From positions 11,532,001 to 11,596,000 of the forward strand of contig CM022667.1 in assembly GCA_012295275.1 (NCBI GenBank): a stretch of DNA of 64,000 nt. The letters run 5' to 3'. The first letter of the stretch is position 1. Each line of letters starts with the position of its first letter. Positions 6,449 through 29,300 of this stretch are shown here, piece by piece. Source of the stretch: Chrysomallon squamiferum. Lineage: Eukaryota; Animalia; Mollusca. The position numbers were made by a program, and so were the translations under genes. Below the pieces are notes generated by a model, which saw nothing but the letters and a program-made list of their open reading frames with translations, was not told where the DNA came from and did not search any database.

Positions 6449-8015
6449 AGGTAGCATAAAAAAAAAAAAATGTGAATTTAATTTAATTTAATTTAATTTA
6501 ATATGAACAGTAATAACCATGTTAGCTTCATCATCACAGCTTATAAACGAAATAAAATACAAACATTATAAATCAAGCTGAAATCGACTGGATCAAGAGT
6601 CCATAATCATTTTTTTATTTTATTTGCTATGGAAACGATGACACTAAATAAACAGAAGTGTGAATTTTATTAAAACAGAGACAAATTAGCCTAGGGGGCT
6701 TCTCCTCTAGAATACGAAGGAAAGTTTTCTGATGGAATCTAACACAGGTCTAAGAGACTGGCAACGTCACTGTGTCTCTAATATTTTCGGGGTCATGTCC
6801 CACCCTGAGTCAAAATTAATATAAAAAGATCCTTTTCACTGTAGTTTTTAATGTAACGTTACTGAATTGTCTGTCCAATTTGTCGTTTCGTTTTTGGCTG
6901 TACTGTATTGCGTTTAGAAATGTGTCTAAACTGATTTTAAACACACACACACACATATATATATATATATATATGTTTGTTGTTAAATTTCATTTTTATG
7001 TTAACAAACAAGTCAAAAAAAAAAAAAATCAATAAATAAAAAGTAAAAAAAAAAAAAAAAAATAATAATAATAATAATAAACGAAATGAAAAATATATAA
7101 ATAAATAAATAAAAACGTAATAAAAAATAAAAAAAATTAAATTAAAATTAAAAAATATAAATGACGGAAATAAAAAAAAAAAACTGTCAAAAAATATAAC
7201 ATTTGTAAATGACATCTGCACTCTCTGAAACAAATATAGCATTCATCGGGAATAATAGATATACATTCATTTAAATAATTAGAGACTTGTTTATCATATA
7301 AATACACGAAATAGGAGGTTGATTTGAAAACAGTGCCAGAGCCCGCAAACAGTTCATTTAGTCGTCTGCTCTGAAAAAAACACACATAAAAGGTAAAAAT
7401 AATTTTATTTTTATCGAGCAAGTCACAGTACGTATTGAACAATTATCGTCAATGAGTATCTTCCGTATGTTATGTTGTCTTGTGTTATGTTATGTTATGT
7501 TATGCTATGTTATGCTATGTTATGTTATGTTACATTATATTATATTATATTACATTATATTATATTAAATTACATTATACAAACTACACATACAGAGACT
7601 TGCATTACGACACATATACATTTACACATTCACATACAAACACATGCTTACTTACATACATACAGGCAGGTATTCACGAAAAACACACAAGTTCAGGCAA
7701 AAATACATGTAAGAGAATCAAGAAGAAAGAAAGAAAACACACATACACGTCACGGCTGTCCTTGTCCTCTCTACACATTTTATCAGCTCTGACATCATCA
7801 AATCACACAGCAACAGAAACACACATTTATTTTATCAAATAAATTTGGTATGTGTTATCCTGTTATCCTGCGAAGTTGGACTTAAACAGAATACCTGCTG
7901 CCGTCATACAAGGGTAGATATTGGAGTGAGGAACAATTAACAATTGTATATTTTGAGACATTTAAACTGATATATATTTTTTTTTTCTCTCTCTCTGTCT
8001 CTCGTTCTAGAGAAA

Positions 8016-9752
8016 ATGCAAACATTAACTCACTATGTATTAGTGCGCATAGCCGGTCTGCTGGTGTACTTCTATCCAAAAGGCCCATCTTTGGACCAAT
8101 GTAACAAGTTTAACTGTCATCACAAGTGGGTTATGTAAGTATACACTTTCAGTGTGTTACAGACATGGTCATCATTAAAGATGGTCATCATTACTATTAT
8201 TACAATATCCTTATCGTAATTATTCTCATTATCATCATCGTCATCACTGTCATTCTCTTTATCATCATCATCAATATCATCAATATCATCACCATAACCA
8301 TCACCATCTCCTCATTATTGTTACTGTCATCATGATCGTTATCAAAAATATCGTCATCATCATAATTATCGCTAATCTTATCATTACCGTCGTCACTACT
8401 ATCATCATCATCATCATCATCATCATCATCATCATCATTATTATTATTATCATTATTATCATTATTACTATTATTTTCTGTATCGATTCCAGAGATCAAG
8501 AATACTGTCCTCAGTTCTGTGAGAAGGTAATTTGATAAAGTATTGCTGTTACTGCTGCCATTATTACAACTACTCCTACTACTATTACCACTGCTACCAC
8601 TAGAACTGTCACCATTACTATTGCTTCTACTACTTCTACTACTACTACTACTACTGCTACTACTACTACGGCAGCTACCACTGCTACTGCCACCATTTAA
8701 TATGCGTATTGCTCCTGTTGCCAAAGCTAAACCATTGTTACTGCTATTCTACCACTAGAACTACCACAACAACCACTATTCCTACTATTACCACTACTAC
8801 CTCTACTATTGTTACTACTACCAGTACTGTGCTACAACATGTGCTGCTTCTACTACTGGTGCTACTACTGCTATAACTAGCAAGGCCAATACACCTACTG
8901 TTCTAATACTACAAGAAATGCAACTACCACTACTACAGTTGTTCATATTGGCTAAAAAAAATTTCTAAATTTCAGGTGGTGCCAGCTGCAGTCACCCTTG
9001 CGGTATATCTTAAATATTACTGTTCGTTTTGTTGTTTTTGTCACGTTTTAAATGTTGTTGTTGTTTGCTGTTATTATTGTTATTATTATTATTATTATTA
9101 TTATTATTTATTTATTTATTTATTTATTTATTTATTTATTTATTTTAGTTGTTTGTTTTCGTTCATTATGTCGGTGAAGAACTTGTGTGTGGTTGTTTCA
9201 GTTACAACTACTACTACGTCTACCACTAATACTACCATTACTATTGCTGCTGCTACTAAGTTTTGCTATTACTACTACTACTACTATTTATACTACTATT
9301 ACTGCTGCTGCTACTACTACTATGTACTATTTATTTTGCTACTTCTAGAGATACTATTTTCTACTACAGTTACTGCAGCTACTACTGTACTACCATTACC
9401 ACTACACTACCTCTACTATTTCTACTACTACTTCTATTACTACTACTACTACTACAACCATTTTTGCTGTATTAACACTTCCACTACAACAAAAAAACCC
9501 AGCAACCAATACAGTTATAATTACTACTTTACTACTATTAATTTTATTATTACTTCTATTATAATACTACTATATTATATTATATAATATTATAATCTGT
9601 AAACAGAAGATAGGTTTATTTCTTTCCTTCTATATATCTGAGTTCAGAAGTTAACGGAAGACGACAGTAAGCTTAAGAAAAGACTTTTCGAAGAGAGATT
9701 TTACGGGCTAACATACCAAGAAGCTGAGGACATTTACAATAAAATCTATTAA
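8016..9752 (+). CDS. S1: small Cys-motif protein of unknown family (94 aa), micro-exon gene
   Basis: join(8016-8134,8493-8526,8976-9002,9648-9752), all GT-AG, phases 2/0/0: MQTLTHYVLVRIAGLLVYFYPKGPSLDQCNKFNCHHKWVIDQEYCPQFCEKVVPAAVTLAKLTEDDSKLKKRLFEERFYGLTYQEAEDIYNKIY*. An upstream probable 5'UTR exon ends at 7847. Confidence 0.85.
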
Positions 9753-10299
9753 CAACATTATTTACGGTGCAGTGTGTTTTAAGTTGATGTTGTTTGAAAA
9801 TATGAAAAAATAAACATTAATTCAAACACACGACACACGTGCGTATTTTGCAACAATTCCTTATGCCGAAGGCACAGTTTCCGTTATATATGTATGTATG
9901 TATGTAAGTTTTGTGTCCGCGCGTATATGCGTATGTGTGTGTGTCTGTGTCTGTGTCTGTGTGTGTGCGTGTGTAAGTGTGCATTTAGTATCAAACATAA
10001 TCACAATTATAAGAAAAAAAAAGAATAGAATATGTATGTATATGTGTGTATATGTATATGTATGTGTATATATATATATATATATATATATATATACTAT
10101 GAATAATTATATGCGTATACAAATGTATAAAATGTGACCGTAGTTTTATTTCACTTTAGTTGTAAAAAAAAAAAAAAGAAAGAAAAAAAAAGCTACATCC
10201 ATTAAGTAAAATGAAATAATAGAATCAATACGTCAACATGAAAAACAGACCAAAAAAAAAAAAAAAAAAAAAAAAAAAAAAACATCAGATTTGACGAAA

Positions 10300-27290: not shown

Positions 27291-27605
27291 TTATTTTTAA
27301 AATAAAATGTTCAATAGTGATACAACTTTGTTATTATTATTATTATTTTTATTTATTTATTTATTTATTTATATATTATGGGAAGGTGGAGTATTATCAT
27401 GTTTTGTTTGTATATTCGCTCTTTCGTTTACAAGAACCGAGATTTAATTGTCCGATTGTTTAGAACCACAATTTTCTGTTGCAACAACAAAATGTGAATC
27501 AAGAATAAATAAATAAATAAATAAATAACAACAACAACAACAACAACAAACAAACAAGAAATAAACAAGGCACATATACTTTAGAAGAGTTTACTGAAAA
27601 TAATT

Positions 27606-29300
27606 CTAATTTGTGATTGATGTGTACAGACTTGTAGCTTCAGTGTCAGACATAGACATTAAACGTTCCTGGAAAATCCTTTTATATATTCTAGGAAACA
27701 GTTTCGTCAATTTCTGGAAACCAGATGTACGTAATAAGCTTGACTATGATAATTATCCATATTTAGATGGAGAAAATTTTAAAAATTAAAAATTTTAAAA
27801 CTAAAAAAAAAAAATTATAATAATAATAAAAGTAATAATGATGAAAATGATGATGAATAATAATAATAATAATAATAATAATAATAATAATAATAATAAT
27901 AATAATAATAATAATAATAATAATGATAACAATGATAATGATGATAATAATAATAATAATAATAATAATAACTGACAGACATGTATTTGTGTTAATGCCT
28001 GTTTGTATTTGTCATGCTAGTTGTTGCTGAAGTTTTAACTGCGGTCCTGGACATACGACTTTAACCAAAATAAACACTTTCATATGATACTTTTTAAATA
28101 AGTTTGTAGATAAAATAATTTTTGTTAACATTAGAAGCCGGACAGTAGAAAAATCAGTAAACACGAATCAGTTTATATTTGAGTGTTTTCCATAGTCATA
28201 ACATAGGAGTGGTCGAATTAGTAGTAGTAGTAGTAGTATATATATAGTAGTAGTAGAAGTAGTAGAAGAAAATAGTTGAAGCAACATTAGAAAGTAGTAG
28301 ACAAATTAGCAACATATAAATCGTAGTAGTTGCTATAGTCATAGCAGAAGTCGTGGAATTAAAAATATTAATATAGTAGTAGTACTACAATTATATAGAC
28401 AAAAACACTGTAGTATATACTTTAAAGATAGTAGTAATAGAAGTAGTAGTAGTAGTAAAGTAGGCAGTAGTGATAGTTATAAAAAACAACCTAACAGTAG
28501 TAAAAAAAACAGAAAATAGTACAAAAAAAACCCCTTACCTATATAGACAGGTGTCACAAAGGTATCTTAAATAAACTAGCAAAAACTAAAAACAACAACA
28601 ATAAACAAATAAAATAAAAAAAAATAAAATAAACCTAAATAAAATAAAATTATTCTTAATAATAGGAATAATTAAATAACAACAATAACACAAAAAAAAA
28701 TAATAATAATAATAAATAAATAAATAAAACTTGTGCTGTATTCATAACAAAATGTATAGTAGTAGTAGTAGTAGAAGTAGTGGTACTAGTATAGCAGTTG
28801 TATAAACAGAAATAACAGTTATGTTGGCTCTGATTGTTTTATAAGTTGTAGTAGTGTTTGGTTACGTTGGTGATAGTAGAGTTTGTTTTATGGTACTTGT
28901 TTGTTTTATATTATAACTAGAGGAAGTTCTGTTTTGTTTTTTCTCAACAACGCATGTGCGAGCTATACATATATATTTCCTGCACACGTTTCAACGAGGA
29001 TGTTTGTTTGATCGTAGTAGTAATACCAGTAACGTAAGAAATGTCAGTAAAAATGATGAAATACGTTGTGGTAATAATTGTAATAGTAGCAGTAGCTGCA
29101 ATAATTTTGTAGCAAAAAACACCAGGAATAGACGTAGTTGTAGAAACAGCAGTATTTGTAGTATTGTGTGTACAGGATATCTAAAAGTCTCTGTGTTCGT
29201 CGTCTTTGCTGAAAGAATCCAAAAAATGAACAAGTTAAATACACGTGTAAACCCTTCTAGAAACATAAAGAGTATCTATCGCTTTTCATGTCATAAGTTA
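27606..29300 (-). pseudogene. S5: inverted S3-like copy; last exon intact (27606-27713), upstream exons degenerate or unresolved
   Basis: Minus-strand ctggtttccag|KLTKLFPRIYKRIFQERLMSMSDTEATSLYTSITN* aligns without gaps to the S3 last exon. Intron block ~27995-28115 is the reverse complement of S3 intron ~21400-21535. A 27-nt AG..GT segment at 28539-28565 contains stops in phase 0. Confidence 0.65.

Follow-up and report, generated by a model that had tools for sequence, protein, structure and literature searches.

Four paralogous units of a predicted small cysteine-framework protein family within a PAN and C-type-lectin array of Chrysomallon squamiferum

The window analysed in this study is a 64,000-nucleotide stretch of the mollusc Chrysomallon squamiferum (assembly GCA_012295275.1, contig CM022667.1, positions 11,532,001 to 11,596,000 of the forward strand), and it contains four plus-strand units, designated S1 to S4, which start at about 7.8, 12.6, 19.0 and 25.6 kb and share one architecture. 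Each unit consists of a non-coding exon 1 followed by coding exons of 101-119, 31 or 34, 27 and 105-126 nt, which splice into open frames of 94 (S1), 100 (S2), 92 (S3) and 89 (S4) codons. The original prediction, made from the letters of this DNA alone, had listed a short first exon in each unit; this exon 1 is non-coding, the start ATG lying in exon 2. The features of the four units are listed below, numbered from the first letter of the window.

7780-7847, plus strand: S1 5' block with non-coding exon 1; nhmmer profile match, 5' end not mapped, donor TTG/GTATGT
8011-8134, plus strand: S1 exon 2, ATG at 8016; hydrophobic N-terminus, GP and C-x4-C, ending in phase 2
8493-8526, plus strand: S1 exon 3, 34 nt, with C-x2-F-C-x-K
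8976-9002, plus strand: S1 exon 4, 27 nt, with VPA..L
9648-9752, plus strand: S1 last coding exon with stop; tail motif, AATAAA 57 nt downstream
12564-12631, plus strand: S2 5' block with non-coding exon 1; profile match, TGACGTCA at 12575, terminal out-of-frame ATG
12774-12897, plus strand: S2 exon 2, ATG at 12779; frame broken by a 4-nt insertion in an allele from a separate DNA data set
13221-13251, plus strand: S2 exon 3, 31 nt
14192-14218, plus strand: S2 exon 4, 27 nt, VSA replacing VPA; sole candidate in its zone
15500-15625, plus strand: S2 last coding exon with stop; the most diverged, -0.7 bits in the leave-one-out test
18954-19016, plus strand: S3 5' block with non-coding exon 1; profile match, terminal out-of-frame ATG
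19190-19307, plus strand: S3 exon 2, ATG at 19195
19996-20026, plus strand: S3 exon 3, 31 nt
20798-20824, plus strand: S3 exon 4, 27 nt, with VPA..L
22041-22148, plus strand: S3 last coding exon, TAG stop
25566-25634, plus strand: S4 5' block with non-coding exon 1; profile match, TGACGTCA at 25578, terminal out-of-frame ATG
25845-25958, plus strand: S4 exon 2, ATG at 25858
26232-26265, plus strand: S4 exon 3, 34 nt
26653-26679, plus strand: S4 exon 4, 27 nt, with VPA..L
27183-27290, plus strand: S4 last coding exon, TAA stop

Each of the four introns has a GT donor and an AG acceptor in all four units, with polypyrimidine tracts present, and the intron phases within the coding part are 2, 0 and 0 in every unit. 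The donor of exon 2 reads GT[AG]AGT in four of four, and the stop codons fall at nearly identical aligned positions, followed by AATAAA after 57 nt in S1, 222 nt in S3 and 14 nt in S4. The exon lengths, phases, motifs, GT-AG junctions and stop-free splicing first described for S1-S4 were all reproduced. The introns are largely composed of trinucleotide microsatellites (TCA, TAC, ACT, TCT and TTA); as had been proposed, a reading based on open reading frames (ORFs) misses these genes because their short exons are buried in such repeats. Within intron 3 of S3, a 24-nt minisatellite of 22 copies occupies 20206-20739; its minus strand forms a long cysteine-rich repeat ORF, which is probably no gene.

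When both strands of the window were scanned, C-x2-F-C-x-[KR] matched seven times, four of the matches being the third exons of S1-S4, and the C-terminal tail motif matched three times, always in an S last exon. Open 27-nt segments between AG and GT with a [VIL]PA-type motif were found four times on the two strands, three of them as exon 4 of S1, S3 and S4. The 27-nt exon by itself is weak evidence, since 68 open segments of this form occur on the plus strand, but that of S2 is the sole such segment within its 2.2-kb zone. A DNA profile covering exon 1 with the beginning of intron 1 matched exactly S1-S4, with E-values from 7e-23 to 4e-36 that are self-included, the profile having been built with the four units themselves; the next match had an E-value of 0.19. 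Full-length protein profiles that left out one member at a time scored the omitted protein at 79 (S1), 30 (S2), 81 (S3) and 60 (S4) bits. Under simulated neutral drift to about 50% nucleotide identity (20,000 trials per gene), the frame was still open in 0.0006-0.0023 of the trials for each gene. Selection has maintained the open frames and the motifs; each of the four frames would have a chance of about 0.001 of staying open by drift at this saturating divergence. Architecture, leave-one-out profiles, motif scans and drift simulation agree with the proposed gene family: S1-S4 are a real paralogous family of small genes, and they are predicted to be protein-coding.

Pairwise protein identity among S1-S4 is 25-38%. 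At the DNA level, for which unrelated pieces give a baseline of 0.47, identity among the units stays at about that level in exon 2 (0.50), exon 4 (0.52), the last exon (0.47), the end of intron 4 (0.52) and the 3' flank (0.54). Distinctly higher values are found for exon 3 (0.62), intron 1 (0.63) and the final 60 nt of exon 1 (0.69). The 5' leader and the first intron are, to judge by these values, constrained or homogenised. Differences among S1, S3 and S4 follow the codon-position order 3 > 1 > 2 (third position 0.58-0.70 versus second 0.34-0.42), which is a coding signature. The proportion of synonymous differences (pS) is 0.72-0.80 in five of the six pairs, that is, saturated, so that ratios of non-synonymous to synonymous rates (dN/dS) among S1-S4 are meaningless and the duplications must be old. 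The description of the family as fast-evolving is plausible, with the rate beyond measurement from four copies whose neutral sites are saturated. The proteins have kept C-x4-C-x9-11-C-x3-C (four of four), VPA in the 27-nt exon (three of four) and the C-terminal motif. When the exon-2 peptides are aligned, only M1, one tyrosine and the two cysteines are invariant, and of these the N-terminal segment contains just M1 and the tyrosine. Constraint would thus appear to act on a skeleton alone: four cysteines, an aromatic residue before Cys 2 and Cys 4, VPA, and R-[ILV]-F-x-[ED]-R ... [LM]-[TS] ... EA ... [IL]-Y.

The 5' block of each unit ends in a GTATGT or GTATCT donor, 142-210 nt before exon 2. 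The terminal triplet of exon 1 is TTG in S1 (7845-7847) and ATG in S2 (12629-12631), S3 (19014-19016) and S4 (25632-25634). Upstream ORFs from these ATGs have 3-18 codons, are unconserved and overlap the main start. An N-terminal extension from exon 1 was considered and rejected, in-frame upstream reading meeting a stop in S1-S4. The palindromic TGACGTCA occurs five times in the window (at 530, 12575, 17058, 25578 and 55593) versus 0.72 expected from shuffles; in S2 and S4 a perfect copy lies 57 nt ahead of the donor of exon 1, and S1 has a copy with one mismatch. Both the upstream ATG of S2-S4 and the TGACGTCA sites of S2 and S4 are possible regulatory features, and the shared 5' leader and intron 1 could act as a common regulatory module.

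S2 is the odd member among the four. Its protein has no GP, VSA for VPA, two extra cysteines and a tail that scores -0.7 bits in the leave-one-out test, and against S3 its proportion of non-synonymous differences (pN) exceeds pS. Neither AATAAA nor ATTAAA was found within 500 nt after its stop. In contigs of another DNA run that carry the locus, a 4-nt insertion is present at 12874 in exon 2, and with the same splice sites the frame of this allele would end in a stop where exon 3 begins. Between these contigs and the window, about 1-2% of the non-coding sites differ. The 5' block of S2 is the best conserved of all, with an identity of 0.82 to that of S4.

A fifth family unit, S5, had also been proposed. 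This could not be upheld, S5 amounting to an inverted copy of an S3-like 3' end with the last exon alone, represented by two features.

27606-27713, minus strand: S5 last exon with stop; profile match, tail to tail with S4
27504-28128, minus strand: inverted partial duplicate holding S5; copy of S3 21384-22257, from the end of intron 4 through the last exon into the 3' flank

The single S-type last exon runs from 27713 to 27609 on the minus strand with its stop at 27608-27606, and scores 31 bits (E 3e-8). The duplicate around it is 70-74% identical to S3 21384-22257. On the minus strand, pattern scans of 27714-30900 recognised no exons 1-4 upstream of S5; the single exon-3-like candidate, at 28979-28949 with C-x4-C and a weak donor, was judged poor and dropped. 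The S5 exon is 66% identical to the S3 last exon, with no indel and with 12, 10 and 14 differences at the three codon positions; the flanks are 69-79% (intron) and 74% (3' flank) identical. Such divergence is that expected of a putatively non-functional fragment or of relaxed selection.

All queries used in the search for relatives were single exons, a level at which power is low, as exon-level profiles score even true paralogues at only 12-39 bits in leave-one-out tests. Of six S-exon peptides compared with Pfam, five were without a match at E-values up to 1 and the sixth matched below threshold, with 12.5 bits where the cut-off is 25. Profile searches of the PDB returned nothing for exon 2 and three unrelated matches for the tail (E 0.46-1.5). 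In a word-indexed library of 5.8 billion clusters, the exon-2 alignment drew 26 candidates in the 'longer' class, none of which scored, none in the 'near' class and no full-length S-type protein, and an exhaustive HMMER search of 1.84 billion representatives with a 38-position exon-2 profile gave no match at E-values up to 0.001. The ESM Atlas had no usable match to S1 exon 2, and the 588 pattern matches of the S1 exon-2 ORF in a metagenome scan included no relative. The sole metagenome match of the S3 exon-2 ORF (locus L001, 3689-3757) was rejected as chance, being an 8-residue pattern from polypyrimidine read-through that diverges before the start codon. The claim that the family has no recognisable relative agrees with these searches at exon level; with an estimated 41 bits or so needed in the 1.84-billion search and true paralogues reaching only 12-39, the absence of relatives is weakly supported.

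The window is AT-rich eukaryotic DNA with a G+C content of 25-35% in 2-kb bins; a genome value of 37.22% is given for Gigantopelta aegis in PMC7895826. Pfam matches to PAN and C-type lectin domains were found in exon-sized ORFs at 447-3920 and from 30.9 kb on, so that PAN/C-type-lectin genes lie on both sides of 7.8-28.1 kb and the S genes are indeed nested in a lectin array, as first described. In databases, the lectins closest to those of the window come from the vent snail G. aegis (three proteins, 42-45% identity), and the nearest ESM Atlas cluster of one lectin exon is labelled 'perlucin family', commonest in Mollusca. The matches mark the DNA as that of a mollusc-like animal, and the lectin identity and the G+C content set it apart from G. 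aegis itself. With the best G. aegis lectin as tblastn query, one copy was located at 507-3911 (plus strand), seven at 30928-52012 (plus strand) and more at 56772-61990 (minus strand), an array of at least 10 copies in the window. Some of the minus-strand copies look partial, the last lectin exon alone being matched. For vent snails, PMC7895826 discusses C-type lectins in the role of pattern-recognition receptors.

Several other features were observed in the window. A dispersed repeat of about 300 nt, with 88-90% identity between copies, has one copy at 15053-15367, inside the final S2 intron, and two on the minus strand (47196-46879 and 39062-38796) that belong to two lectin genes; it is probably a mobile element. 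Between S1 and S2, an island richer in G+C (10300-10700) contains CACGTG, CCAAT-like motifs and, on both strands, ORFs of 95-112 codons that overlap one another; it has no above-threshold Pfam match. The segment 11119-11398 upstream of S2 is 70% identical to 18548-18770 upstream of S3 around (GA)n/(AG)n tracts, and may be the remnant of an ancestral duplication unit. Rfam and tRNA scans of the window returned nothing.

AlphaFold was applied to exon-level pieces of the S proteins, and the cysteine block spans the junction of exons 2 and 3. The S1 exon-2 peptide was modelled with a helix over residues 3-19, a coil over Y-P-K-G-P and a short helix (26-31) around the first cysteine, at a predicted local distance difference test score (pLDDT) of 71. 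For the S3 tail, a helix over 2-19, a break at T-S-M and a second helix over 23-34 were predicted (pLDDT 80.6). Small helical proteins with a two-disulfide or metal-binding hairpin had been anticipated; the helical part agrees with the predicted tail of S3, and the hairpin would fall across the junction of exons 2 and 3. The tails are charge-balanced and amphipathic, with a helical moment of 0.34-0.60. At the N-termini, the 10-residue cores have Kyte-Doolittle values of 2.54, 3.05, 2.15 and 1.29 in S1 to S4, and the best 12-residue Eisenberg hydrophobicity is 0.65-0.91 at a low helical moment of 0.08-0.27. The same measure gives 0.90 for a lectin signal peptide of the window and 0.71 and 0.51 for two G. 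aegis lectins; the third, at 0.16, looks N-terminally incomplete.

Given these features, S1, S3 and S4 are quite possibly, if short of probably, expressed genes for small secreted proteins with a signal-peptide N-terminus, two disulfides and a helix-turn-helix tail that act extracellularly. The 17-residue N-terminal hydrophobic helix, with a hydrophobicity near that of the neighbouring lectin signal peptides, would serve as the signal peptide. The four cysteines would form two disulfides stapling the short cysteine-bearing helix and the loop to the C-x3-C segment, and the VPA turn would lead into the helix-turn-helix tail. The neighbouring PAN and C-type lectins, being of a secreted type, count in favour of this reading. 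The product might then work extracellularly, in the manner of a soluble ligand or effector; that it has an immune or symbiosis role can only be guessed from its location within the lectin array. In a more far-reaching version, S1, S3 and S4 would be an undescribed secreted two-disulfide class, long kept in the lectin locus and driven by the shared 5' leader and intron module, whose members act as humoral effectors or ligands with the PAN/C-type lectins in host-microbe recognition; as a whole, this is unlikely.

A number of observations weigh against secretion and the proposed fold. The secretory and disulfide steps are themselves putative. The maximal 19-residue Kyte-Doolittle mean of the N-termini is 0.47-1.44, below the membrane threshold of 1.6, the core of S4 is weak (1.29) and a charged residue lies inside the core of S1 and S3, in keeping with the original prediction that the N-termini are not textbook signal peptides. 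A proline follows the glycine at the expected end of the N-terminal segment and would disfavour signal cleavage exactly there. The first cysteine pair is spaced i, i+5, which is not one face of an alpha-helix and makes a ladder-type helical hairpin doubtful. The sub-threshold N-termini and their charged residues would also suit small intracellular proteins, not secreted, whose four cysteines hold a single zinc ion as a Cys4 knuckle between the N-terminal helix and the helical tail. Exactly four cysteines are conserved in S1, S3 and S4, and the C-x4-C spacing may suit a metal knuckle better than a helix face. However, the low moment and the lectin-like hydrophobicity of the N-termini speak against this, the exon peptides match no zinc-finger family in Pfam at the low power of exon-level queries, and extracellular proteins are the more typical products of small tandem families with strong divergence; such zinc proteins appear improbable. 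A precursor of the prohormone type was also considered, in which, once the signal peptide had been removed, a convertase would cut at a conserved basic site before [ILV]-F-x-[ED]-R and free an amphipathic C-terminal peptide of 22-24 residues. A basic pair stands at this site in S1, S3 and S5 (three of five), while S2 has K-K and S4 one R. The helical, amphipathic tail may be counted in favour, as may the excess of TGACGTCA in the window and its position ahead of the donor of exon 1 in S2 and S4. Yet neither an amidation signal nor repeated peptide copies are present, the conserved residues cross the putative cut site as one helix in the AlphaFold model, and the freed peptide would be acidic to neutral, has no family match in Pfam and resembles no named molluscan peptide known to us, which leaves such a precursor with a low probability.

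The remaining points against expressed, secreted proteins concern expression and function. Contigs of three small RNA runs of the same organism (56-95 million letters) touch only microsatellites in 7750-15800, leaving the exons of S1 and S2 uncovered, and contain no GT-AG joint at the junctions that the original prediction had offered for a check with spliced reads; this does not speak for silence of the genes. To this can be added the absence of a full-length S-type protein among the 5.8 billion clusters, the out-of-frame ATG with which exon 1 closes in three of the four genes (S2-S4), 8-16 nt ahead of the start codon, and S2 itself, which is likely decaying or a segregating null. The same observations would fit non-functional or non-coding relics, either old unexpressed duplicates or units of which only exon 1 and intron 1 function, in regulation or as a non-coding RNA. 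Transcripts (small RNA runs over S1 and S2) and database proteins (exon-level queries) were not found, the 5' non-coding part alone is clearly conserved as DNA, with the exception of exon 3 (0.62), and the S2 frameshift allele with its missing poly(A) signal within 500 nt and pN > pS against S3 points in the same direction, as does the S5 exon, which has diverged as fast as its flanks (66% versus 69-79%) and at all codon positions (12/10/14). On the other hand, four frames of 89-100 codons have stayed open at saturating divergence, all 16 intron boundaries of S1-S4 and the position of the stop are kept, the cysteines and motifs are conserved position by position, and S1, S3 and S4 have an excess of third-position change. 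Relics are considered an unlikely explanation for the four units.

If expressed, the S genes would add to the mollusc genome an unannotated, lineage-restricted family of small proteins that annotation by ORFs and homology would miss. Handles for study are offered by their place in an array of at least 10 PAN/C-type-lectin copies and by the non-coding exon 1 and intron 1, in which conservation is unusually high. The family by itself is one more orphan family and leaves the field unchanged unless a function is found.

Among known systems, the micro-exon genes of Schistosoma have most of their coding sequence in a series of symmetric micro-exons, whose lengths are multiples of three and at most 36 nt, and a signal peptide in the first coding exon. 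The S genes are similar in having small exons (27-34 nt) between larger ones and small, likely secreted products, and in being hard for ORF-based tools. They had been described as micro-exon genes, a name that does not hold in the Schistosoma sense: the S genes have two small exons contributing about 20 of about 92 residues, belong to a different phylum and share no homology. Since only the 27-nt exon is symmetric, exon skipping could give at most one in-frame variant. Among the matches listed in a literature search for micro-exon genes in molluscs, only schistosomes or tapeworms were found. The twin CX3C small Tim proteins, which are products of single conserved genes, resemble the S proteins in their length of about 90 residues, four cysteines in two pairs and helical structure, but the S proteins differ in the C-x4-C / C-x3-C pattern with a loop of 9-11 residues, the hydrophobic N-terminus, the tandem diverged array and the lack of a Pfam match to the exon peptides.

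In conotoxin superfamilies the signal peptide is highly conserved and the mature region hypervariable. Gene superfamilies of this type are reviewed in PMC4278219. Like them, the S genes encode small cysteine-framework proteins in a tandem or multigene arrangement in a mollusc, with a cysteine skeleton in diverged sequence and the conserved part outside the mature region. Unlike them, the S units conserve exon 1 and intron 1 and not the N-terminal peptide, with no layout of propeptide followed by mature peptide and no sign of a venom context.

Small helical-hairpin peptides, one of them from a gastropod, share with the S proteins four cysteines in two close pairs, a short loop, C-x3-C as the second pair and a helical setting. 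They consist of two antiparallel helices joined by I-IV and II-III disulfides. Their pattern is C-x3-C ... C-x3-C, whereas it is C-x4-C-x(9-11)-C-x3-C in all four S proteins, in which the cysteine block directly follows the N-terminal hydrophobic segment and precedes about 45 residues of conserved tail. The S proteins and these peptides have no similarity in sequence. Disulfide-stapled helical peptides of this kind include the CS-alpha/alpha toxins and the gastropod peptide vil14a (PMC4278219) and the plant vicilin-buried peptides (bioRxiv 10.1101/2020.05.26.118075). By analogy, the S family would work most like these disulfide-stapled small helical peptides. We infer that it is a lineage-restricted family of likely secreted, orphan small cysteine-framework proteins in a tandem array, which as such is of a familiar kind.

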